Positions 1-38,175 of a stretch of 38,175 nucleotides of DNA are shown here, piece after piece. Position 1 is the first letter of the stretch, and the number at the start of each line of letters is the position of its first letter. The position numbers were made by a program, and so were the translations under genes. Under the pieces are notes generated by a model. It had not been told where the DNA came from. It worked only from the letters and a program-made list of their open reading frames with translations, and did no database searches. The DNA comes from a virus: IMG/VR virus record IMGVR_UViG_3300032024_000018, positions 1 through 38,175 of that record; one strand, 5' to 3'.

Positions 1-55
1 TTGCTCTGCGTACGCAAGAGCCAAGACTACAACCAAACCGCCGCGGACATGGATC
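1..55. repeat. 55-bp exact duplicate of 38121..38175 (contig-end overlap; circular or circularly permuted genome)
   Basis: Bases 1-55 (ttgctctgcg...ggatc) are identical to the last 55 bases. An ORF reads through the junction in frame. Confidence 0.95.
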
Positions 56-258
56 CGCACAAGATCGATCGGTCGTCGTACTTCCCATTTGGTGCAGTGA
101 GCTATGCTCAGATGCTCCATACAAAGTCTCAGCGCTTCAACTCGCTGGTCCTCAAAGAGATGCGTGGCCAAGACGCAAACTTTGAAGGCCTGCGTGACAC
201 GGCGTTGGACATCATCAACTATGCTGGCTTCTTTGCTGGCGCCTGCACAAAGGACTGA
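1..258 (+). CDS. DUF1599 / nucleotide-modification-associated-domain-like protein, 3' part (gene starts at 38007 and crosses the junction; 123 aa in total)
   Basis: The ATG at 38007 is in frame with 1..258 through the end duplication. Motifs KSQDYN, FPFG, HTKSQRFNSL and FEGLRDTALDIINYAGF match my memory of DUF1599. Stop is TGA at 256-258. Confidence 0.6.
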   Translation: MLCVRKSQDYNQTAADMDPHKIDRSSYFPFGAVSYAQMLHTKSQRFNSLVLKEMRGQDANFEGLRDTALDIINYAGFFAGACTKD

Positions 259-260
259 TC

Positions 261-1043
261 ATGGACTTCTCAAGAACTTGGCTCGATGCCATCGACGACA
301 TCTTGACCAACGGTGACCCAGTGGCGCCTCGTGGCAAGATGACTCGTGAGATGCCACAACGCACCATGGTGGTAGACATGCGCCGCCCGGTGCTTCGTGT
401 ACCTGATCGCAGCCTGAGCTACAAGTTCATGGCAGCTGAGGCCTTCTGGATCCTGTCTGGCGATGACCGTGTCGAGACCATCTCGCCTTACAACAGCCGC
501 ATCAAGGACTTCAGTGACGACGGTGAACGCTTCTTCGGTGCCTACGGCCCCAAGATCAAAGCTCAACTGCCTTACATTGTTGAGAAACTGATGGCCGATG
601 AAGACAGTCGCCAAGCTGGTCTGACAATCTGGCGTGAGTGCCCACCGCAGACAAAGGACGTGCCTTGCACGGTGGCCATCTTCTTCAACATCCGCAACGG
701 CAAACTCAATGCCCATGTGTTCATGCGGTCGAGCGATGTCTGGCTGGGCGTTCCATATGACGTCTTCAACTTCAGCATGCTCAGCCATTTGGTCTGTGGC
801 CTGCTGAATGAGCATCGGAAGTTTGAAAATGCAGTAAAGCCTGGACGCCTCTTTTTGACGGCTGCTTCAAGCCACCTGTACGAGACCAATTGGGCCGATG
901 CCAAATTGTGCTTGGCCAGTGAGGTCCTCGACCAACCTGAGACAGACACCCTGCTCTGGAACGATGCACAGCACCTGATGAAAGTCTTGGCAGCCTTGCG
1001 TGAGACCAAGGCTGGTGATTCACTACGTTGGTGGGAGAACTAA
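261..1043 (+). CDS. Thymidylate-synthase (ThyA) family enzyme with a dCMP-hydroxymethylase-like active site (pyrimidine dNMP C5 hydroxymethylase or methylase)
   Basis: ATG at 261 follows AAGGA. ThyA motifs seen: AAEAFWIL (Glu60), GAYGPK, DSRQ, VPC136T, FMRSSD159, LGVPYD167VFNF, SSHLY. Asp sits where ThyA has Asn177, and Thr follows the catalytic Cys. Confidence 0.8.
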   Translation: MDFSRTWLDAIDDILTNGDPVAPRGKMTREMPQRTMVVDMRRPVLRVPDRSLSYKFMAAEAFWILSGDDRVETISPYNSRIKDFSDDGERFFGAYGPKIKAQLPYIVEKLMADEDSRQAGLTIWRECPPQTKDVPCTVAIFFNIRNGKLNAHVFMRSSDVWLGVPYDVFNFSMLSHLVCGLLNEHRKFENAVKPGRLFLTAASSHLYETNWADAKLCLASEVLDQPETDTLLWNDAQHLMKVLAALRETKAGDSLRWWEN

Positions 1044-1044
1044 G

Positions 1045-1539
1045 ATGAGACTCAGTCGCGACGAATGGGCCCTCAAGTTGGCCTTGCTCACTGCTCAGAG
1101 AACGACCTGCTGCCGCCGTGCCGTGGGCTGTGTCTTGCTGAATGCCCGTGGCCACGTGCTCTCAACCGGGTACAACGGCGTCGCGGCTGGGCTTTCTCAC
1201 TGCAATCACATGGAGGTCGTCACTGACAATGACGGCCACAACACCTATGTGGTTGAGGTCTTCCCTCACGCCTGCTCAGGAGCCAAGGCGCCGAGCGGCA
1301 CGAATCTCGATGGCTGTCAGGCGATCCACGCAGAGCAGAATGCCTTGCTCCAGTGCCGCGACATGTATGCCATCCACACAGCCTACGTGACGGCCAGTCC
1401 ATGCATGACCTGCTGCAAGTTGCTGTTGAACACGAGCTGCCAGCGGATCGTCTACGTGGAGGAGTATCCTCACTCGGCGGCCAAGGATCTGTGGACTGGT
1501 GCCGGGAGGGCTTGGGAGCAGCTTCTTGTGGAGCTTTGA
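1045..1539 (+). CDS. dCMP deaminase (cytidine/deoxycytidylate deaminase zinc-binding family)
   Basis: HAEQNAL and PCMTCCKLL zinc-binding motifs. ATG at 1045 follows GGGAG. The ORF-track start at 1000 overlaps the upstream gene and lacks an RBS. Confidence 0.85.
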   Translation: MRLSRDEWALKLALLTAQRTTCCRRAVGCVLLNARGHVLSTGYNGVAAGLSHCNHMEVVTDNDGHNTYVVEVFPHACSGAKAPSGTNLDGCQAIHAEQNALLQCRDMYAIHTAYVTASPCMTCCKLLLNTSCQRIVYVEEYPHSAAKDLWTGAGRAWEQLLVEL

Positions 1540-4350: not shown

Positions 4351-6474
4351 TTAAGCTGCAACGTTTGCCATTGCTTTCCAAGTGCCGGGTGTGCCACCAG
4401 TAGTGCAAACCCACCCAGGTGTACCACCGGCAGATGGTGTGTTGTTCCAGATGATGTCACCACGCGACCACTCGCCAGCAGCAGGCGTAGAGGCCGCGTA
4501 GGTCTGCACGTTCTGCGGGTAGCTGGGCATTGTGACGCTGGGCAGACTCTTGCCGATCCAGAGTTCAAGCTGGTACAACTTTAGAGCAGCGGTATCCGCA
4601 GAGCCAGAAAACTGCACACCCATTGTGGTCGGGTTGACTGTCTGCGCTGTTACAGGCAATGCAAGACGAAAGTCAGTATTTGAATCAACCGGTGCCCATA
4701 CCTTGCCGCCGCCAATGCTGCTGCCGTTGAACAAGAACGACATTTCCAATGTGCCAGACGGGATGTTTGGCAACGTGCCTCGCACGACCACGAATATCTG
4801 ACCACCCTGCGGAAAGTTACCACGCAGACGGCCTTGAAACAACGCCTGCAATGTGCCAGCACTTGGGTTGATGTAGAGGCCACGACCAAATGCTGCATCG
4901 ACAGTGGGAACGATTGTCGTACCGCCGAATGCCTGAGCCAGCACCTTGCCCGGATCAGGATACCCACCGTCAAATGCCCACAGCAACTCAGACTGCTGGT
5001 TGTTGTGGCTGGTAGCCGTGAACGGCTCATTCCCAACGCCTGCTGCTGGAGAGTTTGAACAGTTGTCGAACGTAAATTGCGGGTTGTTGATTGCCGTACC
5101 GGGGACGCGGTAATTGCAATTGGTCAACTTTACCTGACACATGTAGTCAGACAAAATAAAGTAATTTTGCAGCGGGTCAGTAGTTCCAGAAAAAGTTGTG
5201 TCGTGGAACTCAATCGCTGCTTTTTCATCAAGGCGAAACGGTGCTGCTGCTCCATTATTTAAAACTGGAGCAATGAACAACGAACGTCCACTGACTTGAT
5301 AGACCGAGTACAGAAGTGGGTTGCCAGTGACCTCAATCCAGAATCCCCTGAATGTAGCCGTAATGAAACGAACCCAGTCAACGTCGTGTGCATTTTGCAA
5401 GAACAGCGCAATCCATCCACTGGATGGAACAGATGGCTCAATCAGGAAATTTGTCGCTTGCAACTGACGAACGCCAGTCAACTTGCAGATGACCTTTTCT
5501 GTGTTTGCTGGCATCGAACCTTCAACGTCACAGTTCTCAATCAGCATAAACGTGGCGATGAGCGCCGTGGTTGTCGAGTGAAAGCTGCCAGAGTTTGTGA
5601 AACGAATGTTTCGGTAAGTGCTCAGTTGGAAATAGGTTCCAGCAAGGTAAACGAACGGGCGTTCAACAGCGACGAAGTGGACGTTGTCGAACACGTGCTT
5701 AACCGAACCCGCAGACTGAACAAAGAACTTACGATCCAGCACATACTGAGCGCAAGCAAACTGAAGGTTGTTGACCGTCAGTTGGTTTCCAGCAGATTGA
5801 TGGTAGAAAAAGCTGTTCGGGTCAATGCTGTCAAGCAAAACACAAGAGCCTTCAATGGTGTTGGCGGTGTTGGCGGCGTAGTCAAGACTCTCACCAAACA
5901 TCACCACACTGCCAGTGGACGAATTGGTGTACCCAGACGTGATTCGATACTTTCCCGCCGGGAAGTACACAGCACCACCGACCGCCTTAGCAGCATCAAT
6001 AGCCGCATGAACAGCCACAGTATCGTCGGCTACACCATCACCGACTGCATTGAACGGTGCGTTCTTGACGTTGATGATGGCCTGCAAAGCCAGGCCTGCA
6101 GAGCCTTGCGGATACGATGCAGACTGGTCGAAGGTGACACTACCAGCATCGACTCCAGAAACCACGATTTCGTTGTAGCGCTCGGTTGCTGTCGGCGCGC
6201 TGTAGACCATGCTGCCTTTCTTGCTCATCACGCGAATGCTGTAGTCGCTGTTGACATACAAGCGTGCAGGCGTGCCGCTGTTGGCCGGGTAGCCAGCCAG
6301 CGTGTGAATGGGCTGCGCAGCAGGCAGCGTCAACGCAGCGTCCCAATACACGTTGATTGGGTTGGTTTGAGGGTCAAGATTAGCCGTGCCGATCCAGACA
6401 TAGCCATCCTCAAGAGGTTGGCCATCAATGTCCGTAAAAATCGGGTAAGTTGGTTGAATACTAAGCGCTGACAT
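4351..6474 (-). CDS. Tailspike with P22-gp9-like head-binding N-terminus and pectate-lyase-type beta-helix (probable polysaccharide depolymerase)
   Basis: N-terminus PIFTDIDGQPLEDGYVWIGTANLDPQTNPINVY resembles the P22 tailspike N-domain. NAVGDGVADDTVAVHAAIDAAKAVGGAVYFPAGKYRI is the pectate_lyase_3 signature. C-terminus has GWVCTTGGTPGTW. Confidence 0.85.
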   Translation of the reverse strand: MSALSIQPTYPIFTDIDGQPLEDGYVWIGTANLDPQTNPINVYWDAALTLPAAQPIHTLAGYPANSGTPARLYVNSDYSIRVMSKKGSMVYSAPTATERYNEIVVSGVDAGSVTFDQSASYPQGSAGLALQAIINVKNAPFNAVGDGVADDTVAVHAAIDAAKAVGGAVYFPAGKYRITSGYTNSSTGSVVMFGESLDYAANTANTIEGSCVLLDSIDPNSFFYHQSAGNQLTVNNLQFACAQYVLDRKFFVQSAGSVKHVFDNVHFVAVERPFVYLAGTYFQLSTYRNIRFTNSGSFHSTTTALIATFMLIENCDVEGSMPANTEKVICKLTGVRQLQATNFLIEPSVPSSGWIALFLQNAHDVDWVRFITATFRGFWIEVTGNPLLYSVYQVSGRSLFIAPVLNNGAAAPFRLDEKAAIEFHDTTFSGTTDPLQNYFILSDYMCQVKLTNCNYRVPGTAINNPQFTFDNCSNSPAAGVGNEPFTATSHNNQQSELLWAFDGGYPDPGKVLAQAFGGTTIVPTVDAAFGRGLYINPSAGTLQALFQGRLRGNFPQGGQIFVVVRGTLPNIPSGTLEMSFLFNGSSIGGGKVWAPVDSNTDFRLALPVTAQTVNPTTMGVQFSGSADTAALKLYQLELWIGKSLPSVTMPSYPQNVQTYAASTPAAGEWSRGDIIWNNTPSAGGTPGWVCTTGGTPGTWKAMANVAA

Positions 6475-6492
6475 TATTGGTTCTCCTTATGG

Positions 6493-8391
6493 TTATTCGC
6501 CAAGAGCCTTCTTGACTTTTGCACGTGTTTTTGCATCTTTAATACCTTTCGTCAATAATCTAAAACTTGTCATAACAGGTGCTGGGACTCCAGCCGTCCC
6601 ACTAATAGCAATGTCCATCATGCCCGCCAAAACACTTGCAGTGTTGCTTGTGTTTACGCTACCAGGAGGCGCGACAAGCACGTCTTTGGCCACGTCGTTG
6701 ATGATACGAAGTTGCTCAGCTCCTTTCTTGCCAAACACAAAGTCAAGTTTCCCAGACTTGTCAAGTTGGGTAAGGACGCGGTCAAGCTGACCTGGTGACA
6801 GAATTGGGTTTCCAAGTTCATCTCGGCCCACGCCTTTAGTGGCCTCGTCACGCAAGAACTTGAGCGTACCGCCTTGAAGTTCTTTCCATGCCTGCTGGCC
6901 GTTTGGTCCTTCAGTTTGAAGCAGGCGACGAACTTGACGGACCGTGTCAAGAGATGTTGATGGGTCGATGACTGAGCGGCGTAGGACGTCCTCCATGGCA
7001 ATGGAACGATCATTTGAGCCGCGCTTTTGACCAAGAAGATTTTTCACCAGACCGATGTTCTCATAATCACTGCCAAACCGGGCTCTTGCTGCGCGAGCTT
7101 GCTTGTACATGTTACCACCCAGACCTTCAGTTGAAGCGTCAATGAGACTGCGCATCTGTGAGGCTTGCATGATGTTGGTTGGCTCAGCGTTCGTGGCGCC
7201 ACCGATCGATCGGCGGAACAACTCGGCGGTCTTCAAAGTGACAGGCTGGGCAATCAAAGTACCGTCTGGAGCTTCAGTTGCCACACCAAGCTGCAAGGCT
7301 TTGGCACGAGTTGCTTTGAGTACGTTGGCAACCTCAGCTTCAGGCGCGTTGTCGACCAAATGCTGGACTACCGTGTCAAGTTTGACAGGTGCTTCCATCT
7401 CGCCAGCCTTTTCAGCCTCCTTGTACAAGGTGCGTATACGCGTCTTATCGCGGGCAGCTCGATCACGAAGCGCCTTGTCCACGGTCAAGCCAATGGAACG
7501 CAAGTCAGGAGCTTCGGCTCCAGTCATGTCAATGAAAGTCTCAAGGTTTTGCTGAAGCTGCTTGTTCTGAGTGGCGAAGCGCTCACGGATGGGCGCCCCA
7601 ACCTCAGGCAGCTTGGCAGTCTCGCGCTCGAAGCGCTGCTGCTCAAACTGGCGCATCTTCTGGCCTTCAGTCAGCTTGATTGGCACAGGCAACTCATCGG
7701 CTTTGGCTTGGCGCAGAGTGGCCATATCCACACCAGCTGAACCACCAGATGCCTGAGTGCCAGGGGTGGGTTTCTTGGCAGTTGCGCCAGGCATGATTTC
7801 GCGGATTGGTTCGGCAGCTTTGGCCACAGCCTGGCCAGCTCGCTTGGTGGCCGCCACGACAGGAGCGGCTACACGACCTGCAGTTGCTGCGACAACTGGC
7901 GCTGCCATCTTGGTGCTGGCTGCCACGGCTCCGATTGGACCAACAACTGGGATGACAGGAGGGACGTTCTGGAGCACTTCGCCGACCGCCTGTACTTGTT
8001 CTTGACCTGACTGAGTGCGAGGAGCGTAGGTCAATGCCTGAGCTCCCTGCATGGCTGACTTTTGGACCAGGTTTGCCGCCTCTTGACTGCCGAATTGGCC
8101 TGACAGGATCTGCTCAGCCAAACCTTTCAGCGTGCCGCCAATAAGACCTGCGGTACCACCGACGGCACCAGTTCCTATGGTCAATGCAGCTTCACCGGCA
8201 CCGACGATCTTCTCACCAATAGAAGGTTCAACGTACTCAGGAGTCGTTCCTGGCACGATGGTATCTGGGATCTGGTTCGTGGTGTCTTGGCGCGCCTTGA
8301 CAAGCACAGCCGCCAAGCGCCGAGCAGCATCAAGGTCGCCAGCCTTGTCGGCGTTGACCAAGGCTTGCTCAAGTTCTTGGAGTGTTGCCAT
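6493..8391 (-). CDS. Large internal virion / ejection-type protein (632 aa)
   Basis: Position is between the tailspike and other ejection-like genes. Ala/Gly-rich segments and long helical regions. No enzymatic motif recognised. Confidence 0.4.
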   Translation of the reverse strand: MATLQELEQALVNADKAGDLDAARRLAAVLVKARQDTTNQIPDTIVPGTTPEYVEPSIGEKIVGAGEAALTIGTGAVGGTAGLIGGTLKGLAEQILSGQFGSQEAANLVQKSAMQGAQALTYAPRTQSGQEQVQAVGEVLQNVPPVIPVVGPIGAVAASTKMAAPVVAATAGRVAAPVVAATKRAGQAVAKAAEPIREIMPGATAKKPTPGTQASGGSAGVDMATLRQAKADELPVPIKLTEGQKMRQFEQQRFERETAKLPEVGAPIRERFATQNKQLQQNLETFIDMTGAEAPDLRSIGLTVDKALRDRAARDKTRIRTLYKEAEKAGEMEAPVKLDTVVQHLVDNAPEAEVANVLKATRAKALQLGVATEAPDGTLIAQPVTLKTAELFRRSIGGATNAEPTNIMQASQMRSLIDASTEGLGGNMYKQARAARARFGSDYENIGLVKNLLGQKRGSNDRSIAMEDVLRRSVIDPSTSLDTVRQVRRLLQTEGPNGQQAWKELQGGTLKFLRDEATKGVGRDELGNPILSPGQLDRVLTQLDKSGKLDFVFGKKGAEQLRIINDVAKDVLVAPPGSVNTSNTASVLAGMMDIAISGTAGVPAPVMTSFRLLTKGIKDAKTRAKVKKALGE

Positions 8392-24878: not shown

Positions 24879-25259
24879 ATGACAGACAAAGACATCGAGC
24901 AGGAGATGCAGGACAAGGGCCTGACTGCTCCGCGCATCACACCAGACGACATCGAAGCCAACATTGTTGCTGAGCATTACTTCACAGCTGCTGATGGTCG
25001 CAATGGCGCACTTGCAGCTGAGACCTACGTCGGCCGTGAAAAGCCTGAAGCTGGTGACGTTGATTTGGTGCCACTCAAGCTGCTGACCTTCTGTGTCTTG
25101 GTGCTAAGCAATGGCTTCACAGTGACAGGCGAATCTGCTTGTGCCAGCCCTGAGAACTTCAATGCTGAGATTGGCAACAAGATTGCGCGCACCAACGCAG
25201 TCAACAAGGTGTGGCCTCTCATGGGCTACGCACTTCGCAACAAACTGGCGGGAGTCTAA
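24879..25259 (+). CDS. Gp49-like family protein (N4 gp49/gp66-type), unknown function
   Basis: LTFCVLVLSNGFTVTGESACASPENFNAEIG...A...W.LMGYAL matches my memory of the Phage_gp49_66 signature. GAGGAG RBS. Confidence 0.55.
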   Translation: MTDKDIEQEMQDKGLTAPRITPDDIEANIVAEHYFTAADGRNGALAAETYVGREKPEAGDVDLVPLKLLTFCVLVLSNGFTVTGESACASPENFNAEIGNKIARTNAVNKVWPLMGYALRNKLAGV

Positions 25260-25261
25260 TC

Positions 25262-25477
25262 ATGCGTTGTTATCTCGTTCAAGGCGGTGGCCGCAAGCGC
25301 TACGCCAGCACAAATGCCGATGCGACGGCCACCCGCAACACCATCGTCGAAGAGACGGGCGCCAAGAAGAAGGACGTCACCATTGAGCAGACCGACATCC
25401 CAGTCGCCAAGGCTGACCTGCTCGAGTTCATCAACACCTTGTGCGCCGAGACCGACGCAAAGGACGCTGAAGAATGA
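25262..25477 (+). CDS. Hypothetical protein (71 aa)
   Basis: ATG at 25262 follows GGGAGT. ATGA coupling to thyX. Confidence 0.5.
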   Translation: MRCYLVQGGGRKRYASTNADATATRNTIVEETGAKKKDVTIEQTDIPVAKADLLEFINTLCAETDAKDAEE

Positions 25478-26139
25478 GCCAAGTCCGTCTGATCGCATTC
25501 ACCCAGCCGATTGAGCTGGAAGGTGTTCAGACGGGCGAGGAGCTGGTGGCCTACTGCGCACGGGTCTCGAACCCTGCCAACCAGGCCAACCATGAAACAG
25601 CTCCTCGTCTGCTTAGCTACCTTGTCCGCAACCAACACTGGTCACCCTTCGAAATGGCTCATGCTGTCATTGAGATACAAACAACTCGCGACATCGCCCG
25701 GCAGATTTTGCGCCATCGGTCCTTCAGCTTTCAAGAGTTCAGTCAACGCTACGCCGAGGTTGTGGCCGATCCTGTTTTGCGCGAAGCACGTCTGCAAGAT
25801 ACCACAAACCGCCAGAATAGTCTTGACTTTGGCGAAGAGAACTTTGCGCTTGTTGACTGGTGGGAACGGCAACAGTCATTGGTTGCAACTGCTGCGCTCA
25901 ATGTCTACAACGAAGCCCTGCTTCAAGGCATCGCCAAGGAAGTTGCTCGTGCTGTTCTGCCTGAAGGCCTGACGCCATCGCATCTGTACATGTCAGGCTC
26001 TATTCGTAGTTGGATCCACTACATCCAATTGCGGACTGGCAACGGCACACAGAAGGAGCACCGTAAGATTGCCGCCATGTGCAAACTGGCCTTGCTCCAC
26101 GTCATGCCGTCACTCACGGAGATGCTCGATGCGTCGTAG
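25474..26139 (+). CDS. thyX: FAD-dependent thymidylate synthase ThyX
   Basis: Exact ThyX motif RHRSFSFQEFSQRY (RHRxxSxxxxSxR). 221 aa. Confidence 0.9.
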   Translation: MSQVRLIAFTQPIELEGVQTGEELVAYCARVSNPANQANHETAPRLLSYLVRNQHWSPFEMAHAVIEIQTTRDIARQILRHRSFSFQEFSQRYAEVVADPVLREARLQDTTNRQNSLDFGEENFALVDWWERQQSLVATAALNVYNEALLQGIAKEVARAVLPEGLTPSHLYMSGSIRSWIHYIQLRTGNGTQKEHRKIAAMCKLALLHVMPSLTEMLDAS

Positions 26140-35122: not shown

Positions 35123-35179
35123 CTAATCACGGTCAACGCAATGGTGCTTGACCGAACAAACCTTGCTGAGGACCTTACC

Positions 35180-35605
35180 ATGACGACCAAGACCTACACC
35201 GCTCGCGACTCCGCCACTTCTGCCCTGAGTAAGCTCGGCCTCCAAGCTCGCGACTACAACCTCTTCATCACGAAGGTGGGCGACAAGTTCGAGTGCAAAC
35301 TCGGCGCAGCTGCCGCCCACCTCGAGTCGCTGAAGAACCCTAAGCCCGCTGAGACCAAAGTTGCTGAGCCTAGGGCTAAAGCCGTTAAGGCAGGCCGCCG
35401 TGCTGCAGACCCAGTTGTTGAAGCCAAGCCGAAGAAGATGGGCATCTCTGCCACGGCACGTGAGTTGATTCTGTCTGGCAAGACCAACCAAGAAGTCTGG
35501 GAAACGCTCAAGCAGCAGTTCAACCTCGACGATTCTAAGAAGCGCTACCCCACTTGGTATCGCTGCGAGATGAAGCGCACTGGCCTGCTGCCTAAGGAAG
35601 CTTGA
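35180..35605 (+). CDS. Hypothetical 141-aa protein; its C-terminal domain is paralogous to that of 36038-36697
   Basis: ATG at 35180 follows GAGGA. Shared blocks VKAGRRA.DPVV...KKM... and F.LD..KK.Y..WYR..K..G..P.EA. Confidence 0.55.
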   Translation: MTTKTYTARDSATSALSKLGLQARDYNLFITKVGDKFECKLGAAAAHLESLKNPKPAETKVAEPRAKAVKAGRRAADPVVEAKPKKMGISATARELILSGKTNQEVWETLKQQFNLDDSKKRYPTWYRCEMKRTGLLPKEA

Positions 35606-35808: not shown

Positions 35809-36038
35809 CCATCAGCAACCCGGACACCATCGAGATTATTGACGAGAGCACGCACGAGGAGATTCGCTTCCAGCTGTACATTGACGGCGGCAGGCGTGCT
35901 CTCGTGAGCAAGAAGAGCGGCACAGTACAGATTCACTGGCAGGTCTACGGACCGCAGTACTGGCCTGAAGCCAAGGTCTTAATGCAAGGCCTTCTTGAAC
36001 TGTCCGTCATCGCTGACAAACTATCTGGAGACAAGTAA
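35805..36038 (+). CDS. Hypothetical protein (77 aa)
   Basis: ATGA overlap with the upstream stop. TAATG coupling downstream. Confidence 0.45.
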   Translation: MTISNPDTIEIIDESTHEEIRFQLYIDGGRRALVSKKSGTVQIHWQVYGPQYWPEAKVLMQGLLELSVIADKLSGDK

Positions 36039-36697
36039 TGGCAACTAAGAAGCAAGCATCGGCAGTCATGCCATGCCACGACCACAACAGACGTACTTGC
36101 ATCCAAGTGGAGCGTAGTGCAGGTCTCGTCAAGTTCATCCCGCTGGACATCATCTTGGGCCTTGAGGTCCATTCGACGTCAGCGGACTCATTCGACCAGC
36201 GGTTCACACCAATGGAAGGATACCCCGTTGAGAAGGCATGTCAACTCTTCGTGAACTACAGCCAGACTCTCGGGGCAGCAAAGGAGGCCATGGATTACCT
36301 TGGCCAAGTCATCAACGTGAGTAAACAGGAGCTTGAAATGGCTACTACCAAGAAGCAAATCGTGGCTGAAAAGCCGGCTGCCGCCAAAGCAGTGAAGCCT
36401 GTCGCAAAGAAGGCGGCAGTAAAACCGACCGAGGTCAAAGCCGGTCGTCGTGCCGTCGACCCAGTGGTAAAAGCAACGCCTGCAGAAAAACCTGCAAAGC
36501 CTGGCGAGAAGAAGATGTCTGTGGCTCAGATGTTCCAAGATCTGATCATGGCCGGCAAGTTGACCGATGACCAAATCTTCGAGAAAGTCCAAGCCGAGTT
36601 CGGTCTGGACGAGAAGAAGCGCGGCTACGTCAAATGGTACCGCAACCACCTGAAGAAACAAGGGCAGAACCCGCCCGAAGCCAAGGTGGCCAAGTAA
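36038..36697 (+). CDS. Hypothetical 219-aa protein with a strong in-frame internal start at 36338 (119-aa C-terminal isoform possible)
   Basis: Internal AGGAG-N7-ATG at codon 101 begins MATTKKQ. The C-terminal domain is paralogous to the protein at 35180-35605. Confidence 0.55.
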   Translation: MATKKQASAVMPCHDHNRRTCIQVERSAGLVKFIPLDIILGLEVHSTSADSFDQRFTPMEGYPVEKACQLFVNYSQTLGAAKEAMDYLGQVINVSKQELEMATTKKQIVAEKPAAAKAVKPVAKKAAVKPTEVKAGRRAVDPVVKATPAEKPAKPGEKKMSVAQMFQDLIMAGKLTDDQIFEKVQAEFGLDEKKRGYVKWYRNHLKKQGQNPPEAKVAK

Positions 36698-36763: not shown

Positions 36764-37597
36764 ATGCCCAAATCCGCCAAAGAGATTACCCGCGACGACC
36801 GCAAGTACGACACAACACAACTGCATGAAGCTGGCCATGGCCGCACCCTGCACCGCGACTACTCTGCCCACTTCTGGCGCTGGAGCTTTGCACGTCGCTT
36901 CATCAATGCCAAGCACAATGTCCTCGAAGTCGGCTGCGGCGAAGATAAACCACTCTGCAAAATTCTCACCGGCGGCGCAGCTGCTCATGTCAACCACTAC
37001 ACTGGTGTTGATCTGAACAAGCTGAAGCCATCTGCTTCCCAGCGTCTGACATTCCATGGCGAGTTCAACTTTGTTGAGCGCTACAAGGAACTCCTGAAGG
37101 CACGCCCTGAGGGCTTCGATGTTGTTGTCAACTACGAAGTCATCGAGCACATGAAGGTCGAGCACGGCACCAGCCTGCTCAAAGCCATGTTTGCTGCCAC
37201 TAAGCCCGGTGGTGTTCTGCTGCTCTCAACTCCAGTTTACGACGGCAAGCGCCATGCCAAGAACCACATCCATGAATACACCGTTCCTGAGTTGCAGGCT
37301 GCCATTGAGAAGGCTGGCTACGTCATTGAGCGTCGCTTCGGCACGTTCATGGACATCAAACACATCGGCAAGGTTGAGCCGCAGGTTCCGGGCATGGACG
37401 GCAAGAAGATGCTGGACGCTATCAAGCTGGTCCGCCAAGGCCTTGAGCAGTACTTCGACAGTGACGCCATCAGCAACATCTTTGGCTCGCTATACCCTGA
37501 CCATGCCCGCAACAATCTGTGGGTGTGCCGCAAAGCAGCTGATGGTAAGCCAGTCAAGCCAGTTGCTCGCAAAGCCACGAAAGGAGCGCCGTTCTGA
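36764..37597 (+). CDS. Class I SAM-dependent methyltransferase (small-molecule type; no canonical DNA-MTase motifs)
   Basis: Motif I VLEVGCGED, post-I GVDLN, motif II FDVVVNYEVIEH, motif III KPGGVLLLSTP. No DPPY/NPPY or PC/ENV motifs seen. Confidence 0.75.
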   Translation: MPKSAKEITRDDRKYDTTQLHEAGHGRTLHRDYSAHFWRWSFARRFINAKHNVLEVGCGEDKPLCKILTGGAAAHVNHYTGVDLNKLKPSASQRLTFHGEFNFVERYKELLKARPEGFDVVVNYEVIEHMKVEHGTSLLKAMFAATKPGGVLLLSTPVYDGKRHAKNHIHEYTVPELQAAIEKAGYVIERRFGTFMDIKHIGKVEPQVPGMDGKKMLDAIKLVRQGLEQYFDSDAISNIFGSLYPDHARNNLWVCRKAADGKPVKPVARKATKGAPF

Positions 37598-37989
37598 TGA
37601 TTGGAAATGTCGCTGAATTCCATGAGAAGTTTGGTCTCCCATTGGGCACCGATGACCAACTCATGCAAGATCCTACAGCGCAGGAATTTCGTGTCAAGTT
37701 CCTCCAAGAAGAACTCGATGAGCTCAAAGAGGCTTTGGCTACTGGGGACAAGGTTGGGGCCTTCGATGCTCTGCTCGATCTGGCTTACGTGGCCTACGGC
37801 ACAGCACTCTTTGCTGGCATTGATGCTGCTCAGTGGCACGCCGGCATGCACGCAGTTCATTCTGCTAATATGGCCAAGGTCCGCGTAGCCAAGGCCGAAG
37901 ACTCGAAACGCGGCAGCGCATTTGACGTCAAGAAGCCGGCAGGCTGGGTAGGTCCTGAATCTCGCTTGAAGGAAATTTTGTCATGGTAA
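37597..37989 (+). CDS. MazG-like all-alpha nucleoside triphosphate pyrophosphohydrolase
   Basis: VAEFHEKFGLP, acidic metal-binding helices FLQEELDELKEA and FDALLDLAYVAYG, then HSANMAK. TGATG coupling to the MTase gene. Confidence 0.7.
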   Translation: MIGNVAEFHEKFGLPLGTDDQLMQDPTAQEFRVKFLQEELDELKEALATGDKVGAFDALLDLAYVAYGTALFAGIDAAQWHAGMHAVHSANMAKVRVAKAEDSKRGSAFDVKKPAGWVGPESRLKEILSW

Positions 37990-38006
37990 CTCGTAAAGGA
38001 ACTGAT

Positions 38007-38175
38007 ATGAAGACCAAGTCTTTGTTGCCCGCCACTCAGTTGGCTGAATGCTCGACCGTTGAACTGCTGGAAGAACTCCAGTCTCGTGGTGGTCATCCCG
38101 GCGCTTTGGCAGAAGCAGCTTTGCTCTGCGTACGCAAGAGCCAAGACTACAACCAAACCGCCGCGGACATGGATC
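38007..38175 (+). CDS. DUF1599-like protein, 5' part (continues in 1..258 across the junction)
   Basis: ATG at 38007 follows AAAGGAA. 114 nt lie before the repeat, so the frame matches ORF 1..258. Confidence 0.6.
   Translation, partial: MKTKSLLPATQLAECSTVELLEELQSRGGHPGALAEAALLCVRKSQDYNQTAADMD

Follow-up and report, generated by a model that had tools for sequence, protein, structure and literature searches.

The question raised by this locus is why a gene for an S-adenosylmethionine (SAM)-dependent methyltransferase should be carried by a virus within a tightly packed block of genes for nucleotide metabolism, and which base that block as a whole is likely to place in the viral DNA. The locus lies in IMG/VR record IMGVR_UViG_3300032024_000018, which was analysed over its full 38,175 nucleotides (hereafter 'the window'), and consists of five open reading frames (ORFs) that cross the junction of a circular contig. 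An earlier note on the same DNA had proposed that the block echoes the cytosine-modification genes of phage T4, and that the methyltransferase, a DUF1599 protein, or both, might perform a further step. The analysis described here points, with slightly better than even confidence, to a T4-type pathway for replacing cytosine before replication, with one step added. The genes of the block, and one further gene that bears on their interpretation, are:

36764-37597, plus strand: class I SAM methyltransferase, 277 residues (Methyltransf_23, E 1e-14).
37597-37989, plus strand: MazG/PRA-PH pyrophosphohydrolase, 130 residues (PF01503, E 4e-12).
38007-38120, plus strand: DUF1599-like (Nmad1-like) gene, 5' part up to the junction, joined to 1-258.
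1-258, plus strand: DUF1599-like gene, 3' part, giving a 123-residue ORF when joined to 38007-38120.
261-1043, plus strand: ThyA-family enzyme, predicted deoxycytidine monophosphate (dCMP) hydroxymethylase (PF00303, Thymidylat_synt, E 1.5e-22).
1045-1539, plus strand: dCMP deaminase (PF00383, dCMP_cyt_deam_1, E 7e-19).
25474-26139, plus strand: ThyX, flavin-dependent thymidylate synthase (PF02511, E 1.6e-37; phrog_85, E 1.4e-64).

Family scans and ORF calls agree with the arrangement of the five plus-strand genes across the junction that the earlier note had described, with a 1-base overlap between the methyltransferase and MazG genes and subsequent gaps of 17, 2 and 1 bases. The ThyX gene, which is located in the replication arm and which that note had omitted, is essential to a base-modifying reading of the ThyA-like gene.

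The chemistry of the block turns on the ThyA-like enzyme, for which the best match in the PDB was the CMP hydroxymethylase MilA (E 9e-18). The protein was aligned with E. coli ThyA, T4 gp42 and the enzyme of Xanthomonas phage Xp12; in the E. coli reference sequence used, the invariant catalytic residues were numbered as expected. Relative to ThyA and gp42, the thymidylate synthase fold and the catalytic residues Cys146, E58, R166, H207 and Y209 are all retained, and the remaining informative positions (E. coli numbering) are occupied by R126, D143, T147, S167, D169 and D177. At every diagnostic position the enzyme has the residue of T4 gp42, whereas E. coli ThyA has L143, H147 and N177, which here are D, T and D; the replacement of Asn177 by Asp can be seen directly where 'VPYDVFNF' aligns against 'LPFNIAS'. 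The combination D143/C146/T147/D169/D177 was found in 85 of 85 methyltransferase-linked ThyA-like orthologues, and hydroxymethylase-type residues were kept in four of six ThyA-like proteins neighbouring distant methyltransferase homologues, with one (locus L095) deviating at position 147 only.

Previous work provides a key to these residues. Exchange of Asn177 for Asp switches the substrate from deoxyuridine monophosphate (dUMP) to dCMP (Hardy & Nalivaika 1992, as summarised in PMC8670742); an acidic residue in place of Leu143 correlates with a hydroxymethyl rather than a methyl product, and admits water (PMC13326640); Asn in place of Asp169 marks 5-hydroxy-dCMP synthases (PMC13326640); and Ser167 together with Arg126 marks a preference for deoxyribose over ribose (MilA study, PMC5175136). 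Read in this way, the residues predict that the product of the ThyA-like enzyme is 5-hydroxymethyl-dCMP. Two other products were considered and rejected. A 5-hydroxy-dCMP synthase of the RB69 gp48 type, whose product might then be O-methylated to 5-methoxycytosine (by analogy with the conversion of ho5U to mo5U in tRNA), was discarded because Asp169 is retained in the window and in all of the linked orthologues, and a ribonucleotide (CMP) substrate, suggested by the match to MilA and by the action of Hen1 methyltransferases on ribose, was discarded because Ser167 and Arg126 are present.

A third possibility is a dCMP methylase activity of the ThyA-like enzyme, as in Xp12, which would give DNA containing 5-methylcytosine (5mC); the deaminase, perhaps selective for 5mC, would then convert 5-methyl-dCMP to deoxythymidine monophosphate (dTMP). 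The Asp177 that the window enzyme and the Xp12 enzyme have in common is compatible with such a scheme, as are the findings of Yang et al. that five of seven tested deaminase-linked Asp177 enzymes gave 5-methyl-dCMP and that many linked deaminases prefer 5mC; complete replacement by 5mC would likewise block most restriction enzymes whose sites include G/C. Positions 143 and 147, however, carry the D and T of T4 gp42 rather than the N and P of the Xp12 pattern (N143, P147, D177), although that pattern is drawn from a single reference sequence and forms a weak test. A phage with its own ThyX would not need the route from 5-methyl-dCMP to dTMP, and dihydrofolate reductase, the gene for which adjoins that of the synthase in Xp12, was not found among the scanned proteins. 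A product of the Xp12 type is accordingly regarded as distinctly improbable.

The separate ThyX means that the ThyA-like enzyme is not required for dTMP synthesis, and it gives the deaminase a clear role as a supplier of dUMP. The deaminase scores 68 bits on PF00383 against a cut-off of 25 (and matches phrog_174 at E 1.5e-34), contains the zinc-binding HAE and PCxxC motifs in the stretches 'IHAEQNA' and 'SPCMTCC', and has an insertion of about 35 residues; in almost every related locus its gene directly follows the ThyA-like gene. Deaminases that are 5mC-selective and act on modified dCMP do exist, and such selectivity is polyphyletic, with no published residue signature (bioRxiv 10.1101/2024.12.05.627091). 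Nonetheless, because ThyX needs dUMP, the gene content appears to favour an ordinary role for this deaminase, in the conversion of dCMP to dUMP, over action on modified dCMP.

Two cultured relatives, AXL3 (Stenotrophomonas, genus Axeltriavirus) and PW916 (Pseudoxanthomonas), connect these predictions to a measured property of phage DNA. Both display the homologous gene order (SNF2 helicase, proteins rich in lysine, alanine and proline (K/A/P-rich), methyltransferase, MazG, a variable 'slot' gene, ThyA-like enzyme, deaminase), with identities to the window proteins of 74% for the methyltransferase, 56-57% for the ThyA-like enzyme and 64-65% for the deaminase, and with ThyX encoded elsewhere in the genome (gp50 in AXL3; PMC7504290). 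They differ from the window in that the slot is filled by a 327-residue kinase-like protein and in that their genomes are 47.5 kb in length and higher in GC content. Only 2 of 37 restriction enzymes tested were found to cut AXL3 DNA, at AATT and TTAA sites, whereas all 35 with G or C in their sites failed (PMC7504290); no later paper naming the modified base was found. The authors of both genome descriptions interpreted the block as one for thymidylate synthesis, and an ordinary pathway from dCMP through dUMP to dTMP, with no modified base, does agree with the database names of the relatives' genes. That interpretation is already contradicted by the residues, in that Asp replaces the uracil-specifying Asn177, and is further opposed by a ThyX that already makes dTMP and by the refractory state of AXL3 DNA; it is scarcely credible.

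The core of the block is a known kind of system, namely T4-type pre-replicative replacement with the gene signature that was identified by MetaGPA. In T4 the set comprises the gp56 dCTPase, the gp42 dCMP hydroxymethylase, the cd deaminase, the td thymidylate synthase, the gp1 deoxynucleoside monophosphate (dNMP) kinase and the alpha- and beta-glucosyltransferases. The window follows the same logic, with a dCMP deaminase, a dedicated thymidylate synthase, an all-alpha NTP pyrophosphohydrolase and a hydroxymethylase-type enzyme that has D143, C146, T147, S167, D169 and D177 in common with gp42. The differences are that the window's pyrophosphohydrolase is of the PRA-PH/MazG type; that ThyX takes the place of a ThyA-type thymidylate synthase; that a dNMP kinase is absent and no glycosyltransferase was found among the plus-arm proteins scanned (a set smaller than the full list of ORFs); that a DUF1599-like protein and a conserved class I methyltransferase are added; and that the window represents a 38-kb phage unrelated to the Straboviridae. 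The analogy with T4 drawn in the earlier note is upheld by the gp42-type residues, by the phage's own ThyX and by the restriction-refractory DNA of a cultured relative; its report that a glycosyltransferase is lacking agrees with the scan of the plus-arm proteins.

The MetaGPA studies provide an independent comparison. There, experiments yielded a gene signature for phage contigs whose cytosine is modified, namely a thymidylate synthase with Asp177, a PRA-PH protein and a dCMP deaminase (Yang et al. eLife 2021, PMC8670742; bioRxiv 10.1101/2024.12.05.627091). All three Pfam families are clustered in the window, whose ThyA-like enzyme departs from ThyA in the way theirs do, at position 147 and in having Asp177. 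Unlike the window, the MetaGPA contigs carry as tailoring enzyme either a carbamoyltransferase acting on 5-hydroxymethylcytosine (5hmC) or none, and a Methyltransf_23 partner is absent from both main texts. Two features are not described in the literature searched: the invariant coupling of the module to a Hen1/UbiG-like methyltransferase, and the alternation of DUF1599-like and kinase-like genes in a single slot.

Conservation within the block is highest for the methyltransferase, at amino acid identities of 57-99% across loci as compared with 40-94% for the ThyA-like enzyme. Its family is large (879 matches at E <= 1e-5, and 626 at E <= 1e-10 when a distant member served as the query), and the best 120 of the 879 homologues are at least 70% identical to it. 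About 100 related loci were surveyed, including 80 from IMG/VR, AXL3 and PW916, a metagenomic phage from Manatee Spring, and phage-sized contigs binned in metagenome-assembled genomes (MAGs). Across these loci, the methyltransferase was found together with ThyA-like and MazG genes, most often in the order SNF2 helicase, one or two K/A/P-rich proteins, methyltransferase, MazG, slot gene, ThyA-like enzyme, deaminase. That order is rearranged in L046, L065, L093 and L094, where the linkage of the methyltransferase is retained, and among distant members (37-56% identity, located by exact-sequence look-up) all seven have a Thymidylat_synt gene at most a few genes away and an annotated PRA-PH gene nearby (the latter faint in L101), and six have an annotated deaminase. 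The shuffled order, and the persistence of linkage at 37-56% identity, indicate an association that goes beyond inherited synteny, and substantiate the earlier note's assignment of the methyltransferase to the block.

A further association is with C5-cytosine DNA methylases, a gene for which occurs in the cluster in at least 12 loci, directly adjacent to the methyltransferase homologue in several and overlapping it in at least three. Examples are L094 6732-8741, L095 5634-7729, L096 4878-7861, L098 5854-7825 and L099 7001-9743; the two genes overlap in L095, L096 and L098, a Dam-like gene intervenes in L099, and in L094 the C5-methylase and the methyltransferase form a single ORF (PF00145, E 1.8e-16, plus Methyltransf_23). 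The idea that such fusion is a recurrent feature was rejected, as none of 120 listed family clusters is fused and only adjacency recurs. No C5-methyltransferase homologue was found in the lineage of the window.

As a separate observation, in L096 both the ThyA-like gene (296-2509) and the C5-methylase gene (4878-7055) carry inteins with homing-endonuclease domains.

The assignment of the methyltransferase to class I is supported by Methyltransf_23, _11, _12 and _25, all above their Pfam thresholds; by the glycine-rich motif I ('VLEVGCGED') and acidic motif II ('GVDLN'), both of which are invariant in the family; and by an AlphaFold model that displays a Rossmann-type alternation of strands and helices, in which a conserved N-terminal motif is modelled at low confidence. 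The motifs conserved in the family include that His-rich N-terminal motif, EVIEH and STP..RH..NHIHEY. Neither the (D/N/S)PP(Y/F/W) motif of amino-methyltransferases nor the PCQ and ENV motifs of C5-methyltransferases is present, in keeping with the earlier note's observation that the enzyme lacks the catalytic motifs of DNA methyltransferases. The C-terminus (37535-37594) forms a Lys-rich tail ending in '...KGAPF' that is probably disordered; of 120 close homologues, 34 terminate in PF or PW and roughly half carry a basic tail, while distant members are mostly without one. Its appearance is that of a tail for docking or for binding nucleic acid.

Sequence searches of the PDB placed Hen1 methyltransferase domains first (3JWG and 3JWI, E 1.3e-4; also 3JWJ, 5WY0 and 4XCX), followed by UbiG, CmoB and phosphoethanolamine methyltransferases. 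In NCBIfam, the matches to UbiG and Hen1 were weak (about 2e-8) and fell far under their cut-offs, and a weak match to CmoB was found as well. Foldseek comparison of the model with the PDB returned approximately 800 generic class I methyltransferases at a TM-score of about 0.5, with no specific relative. Four residues that are invariant in the family (E125, E128, H129 and H168) align with the corresponding Hen1 stretch of 3JWG, comprising EVIEH and a downstream His, which we take to be the Hen1 metal site; E-x-x-E-H is found in UbiG-like enzymes too. On these comparisons the nearest relatives of the enzyme appear to be O-methyltransferases (Hen1, UbiG and CmoB/CmoM-like), and the earlier note's description of it as a small-molecule type was too specific, with Hen1 RNA 2'-O-methyltransferases closest and with some members adjoining, or fused to, a C5-methylase. 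Our reading is that it is probably an enzyme of the O-methyltransferase type committed to the cytosine pathway, for which the most economical substrate would be the hydroxyl group of 5hmC.

The strongest rival to that reading holds that the phage DNA contains plain 5hmC, like that of non-glucosylated T4, and that the methyltransferase performs an unrelated job, such as Hen1-like 2'-O-methylation of RNA 3' ends (in tRNA protection or repair) or inactivation of a host immune nucleotide signal. The Hen1 RNA 3'-end enzymes are indeed the best relatives; the window protein and Hen1 (bacterial Pnkp/Hen1; HENMT1) both have a class I fold, and the conserved EVIEH motif and the His of 'STP...H..H.EYT' align with the putative metal-binding region of Hen1; the nearest PHROG family is named 'tRNA methyltransferase'; one homologue stands alone in a bacterial island; and 5hmC by itself could account for wide restriction resistance. 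Against these points stand the roughly 100 loci, with rearranged orders and identities down to 37%, at which the methyltransferase is linked to MazG and to a hydroxymethylase-type ThyA, and its repeated adjacency to C5-cytosine DNA methylases. The Hen1 score is far under the cut-off (32.9 versus 340 bits for TIGR04074), neither an RNA ligase nor a Pnkp partner occurs among the plus-arm proteins scanned, and the protein lacks the Hen1 N-terminal domain, carries its own His-rich motif in that region, and resides in a deoxynucleotide context that offers no 2'-OH. A function outside the cytosine pathway is considered rather unlikely; the Xp12-type reading, described above, ranks next after it.

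A further alternative is that the methyltransferase-fold protein makes or uses a modified form of SAM, as CmoA does together with CmoX in the synthesis of 5-carboxymethylcytosine, or that it methylates a phosphate or another intermediate. The precedent is the CmoA/CmoX/CmoY system of Synechococcus phage S-B43 (Nat Commun 2025), in which a methyltransferase-fold protein (CmoA) works with a C5-methyltransferase homologue (CmoX), the two being encoded side by side in phages, and in which the product acts as a 'handle' for cytosine hypermodification; the frequent abutment of the present methyltransferase on a C5-methyltransferase homologue, and its weak matches to CmoB, are reminiscent of that arrangement. 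The window differs in having no C5-methyltransferase homologue and no amide ligase; its pathway begins with a ThyA homologue acting on the nucleotide. No similarity to CmoA was found in NCBIfam (up to E 0.01) or the PDB (up to E 5), and a CmoA-like carboxy-SAM synthase was rejected on that basis. Moreover, the window lineage has kept the methyltransferase at 57-99% identity without any C5-methyltransferase homologue. This alternative is very improbable.

The T4-type pathway with one added step would operate as follows: (i) the MazG-like pyrophosphohydrolase, with its DUF1599-like partner, would hydrolyse dCTP to dCMP, both excluding plain cytosine from the DNA and feeding the pathway; (ii) the ThyA-like enzyme, to judge from its active-site residues, would convert dCMP to 5-hydroxymethyl-dCMP; (iii) a kinase step would carry the product to the triphosphate, presumably by way of the kinase-like protein in most relatives and a host kinase here, unless the DUF1599-like protein substitutes for it; (iv) the phage's family-A DNA polymerase would incorporate the modified nucleotide; (v) the deaminase would divert part of the dCMP to dUMP, from which ThyX would produce dTMP; and (vi) the SAM methyltransferase would modify hydroxymethylcytosine, either as the nucleotide or in DNA, with O-methylation to 5-methoxymethylcytosine as the likeliest outcome. 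The resulting DNA would be expected to resist restriction enzymes that read G or C, as does that of AXL3.

For the first of these steps, the MazG-like protein scores 46.7 bits on PF01503 against a cut-off of 21.3 and matches phrog_671, 'nucleotide pyrophosphohydrolase', at E 1.5e-24. It displays no detectable similarity to T4 gp56 (BLASTP E 0.34), so that the earlier note's comparison with gp56 holds at the level of function, where the protein is a putative dCTPase and functional analogue, and not at that of homology. The protein encoded across the junction is less easily placed. It matches PF07659 (DUF1599, 'Nucleotide modification associated domain 1') at E 0.03, with 15.1 bits against a cut-off of 25 and thus below threshold, and no precomputed Pfam domain is recorded for any of 120 listed members of a set of 238 close homologues, which display many invariant polar residues. 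A profile search of 1.8 billion representatives yielded 556 relatives, many of the longer of which are C-terminal fusions to PRA-PH; some exceed the PF07659 threshold, including P0301 (E 1.6e-23), which scores 28.6 bits and carries PRA-PH. A single PHROG family, phrog_18404, covers both the MazG and the DUF1599-like ORFs.

The AlphaFold model of the DUF1599-like protein is all-alpha (pLDDT, its confidence score, 85), and its Foldseek matches in BFVD are phage 'Nucleotide modification associated domain' proteins; Foldseek gave no significant match in the PDB, where a profile search returned a chance GAF match only. Derivation from a diverged MazG was rejected, given the 0.4% probability assigned by hhalign to an alignment with the MazG family. 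The junction protein is best described, from its profile relatives and its predicted fold, as a probable divergent member of DUF1599 and a partner of MazG, so that the label given in the earlier note, while short of the Pfam cut-off, is supported indirectly by the profile relatives, the PRA-PH fusions and the BFVD matches. No literature on the function of DUF1599/Nmad1 was found.

A possible clue to that function comes from the slot that separates the MazG gene from the ThyA-like gene. In the 85 loci that have both a methyltransferase and a ThyA-like gene, the slot holds a kinase-like gene (300-346 residues) in 58 and a DUF1599-like gene in 26; none has both, and the one with neither is a contig of 5.8 kb. 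The window is 86-90% identical in nucleotide sequence to loci L012 and L014 up to position 37986 and again from position 250 onward; the difference is confined to the slot, where they have a kinase-like gene of about 900 bp (L012 7616-8521; L014 9209-10114) and the window has the DUF1599-like gene of about 380 bp (window 37987-249). The slot has thus undergone a clean cassette replacement at gene boundaries between near-identical phages, and this clean and mutually exclusive exchange suggests interchangeable roles for the two proteins, the DUF1599-like one being all-alpha and only 123 residues long.

The kinase-like protein of the relatives (for example, L001 5013-5996 and L093 4972-5997) has a P-loop N-terminal domain, with SPbeta YorR as its best solved relative (E 3.5e-8), and a conserved C-terminal half that ends in 'HPQ.WKRF' and weakly matches the uracil-DNA glycosylase superfamily (E 0.0025). 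The pairing of a base-flipping fold with a kinase raises the possibility that the protein acts on DNA, as do the 5-hydroxymethyldeoxyuridine DNA kinases, rather than on dNMPs. The window itself contains no tblastn match to this protein, and a strict Walker A motif occurs only in its TerL ORF, which bears out the report in the earlier note that a dNMP kinase is lacking; the accompanying claim of a composition unlike that of T4 applies to the window in this respect but does not extend to most relatives, which carry a kinase-like gene in the slot. A more specific proposal has two parts: the DUF1599-like protein would be a non-orthologous substitute for the kinase-like protein, perhaps working with MazG to bring modified dCMP to the triphosphate, and the methyltransferase would O-methylate 5hmC to give 5-methoxymethylcytosine. 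Taken together the two parts are possible but doubtful.

Several points weigh against the T4-type pathway with its added O-methylation. The pathway is a prediction from gene content, and for AXL3 the sign of a modified base is restriction resistance; the rule that relates position 143 to a hydroxymethyl rather than a methyl product is correlative; and the specificity of MazG for dCTP is an assumption from context. The window phage has no kinase for 5-hydroxymethyl-dCMP, a step for which T4 requires gene 1. The fold search with the methyltransferase points to no substrate, and its best relatives methylate the 2'-OH of ribose, a group that is absent from DNA. Fusion to a C5-methylase was found once (L094), and no report of 5-methoxymethylcytosine in nature was found. 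Finally, a homologue with 45% identity stands alone, without a ThyA or MazG gene, at L066 7848-8700. On that 635-kb bacterial contig the gene occupies an island, with a tyrosine integrase and a primase-like protein encoded alongside and a seryl-tRNA synthetase gene not far away; this may be a satellite or island that uses the enzyme differently.

Apart from two, all matches in bacterial assemblies are phage-sized contigs binned in unrelated MAGs. The module contigs L059-L065 (34-54 kb), for example, were assigned to MAGs of Lentisphaera, Flavobacterium, Saccharibacteria and Nitrospira, among others, a placement that is probably a binning artefact; such misbinning explains the 'Nitrospira' best matches that were recorded in the AXL3 paper.

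Modified bases allow phages to evade restriction and CRISPR, and have been the source of 5hmC and 5mC enzymes for epigenomics. The module described here is widespread, having been retrieved from about 100 loci, with a methyltransferase family of 600-900 members in metagenomes, and its presence in two cultured relatives, AXL3 and PW916, the first with heavily modified DNA, offers an experimental handle. The residue analysis predicts a 5hmC intermediate and singles out one conserved enzyme for the step that follows, and the alternation of kinase-like and DUF1599-like genes would be a first functional clue to the 'nucleotide modification associated' domain. Were the proposed O-methylation to prove correct, widespread phages would carry 5-methoxymethylcytosine, a DNA base for which no natural occurrence has been found reported.

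The layout of the window around the block includes two further features:

38121-38175, no strand: overlap copy of bases 1-55, a terminal direct repeat.
1579-1614, no strand: strong hairpin with a 15-bp stem and one bulge (folding free energy -26.7 kcal/mol, z -4.07).

The end of the window is an exact 55-bp copy of its start; such a repeat is an assembler overlap that marks a circular contig, is typical of circular genomes, and implies a true circle of 38,120 bp. Taken uncorrected, the overlap places a frameshifted duplicate within the junction ORF, and removal of one copy yields the correct 123-residue ORF. The hairpin lies between the deaminase gene of the block and the convergent lysis/structural arm and is likely to be a bidirectional terminator, as the earlier note had called it; the structure itself is real, although a simple terminator scan did not call it because a clean run of T is absent.

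Other plus-strand genes were noted in passing. Between the primase-helicase and ThyX genes, positions 24879-25259 encode a protein of the N4 gp49 / Sf6 gp66 family (PF13876, E 5e-33). Upstream of the methyltransferase, positions 35141-35605 and 36038-36697 encode paralogues of 154 and 219 residues, with Lys/Ala/Pro-rich, histone-H1-like stretches and a common C-terminal region; neither has a convincing Pfam match, the 154-residue protein showing one weak, sub-threshold match to RA. In most related loci, homologues of these K/A/P-rich proteins, among them AXL3 gp32, are encoded just upstream of the methyltransferase gene, and a role as DNA-binding partners of the module is possible.

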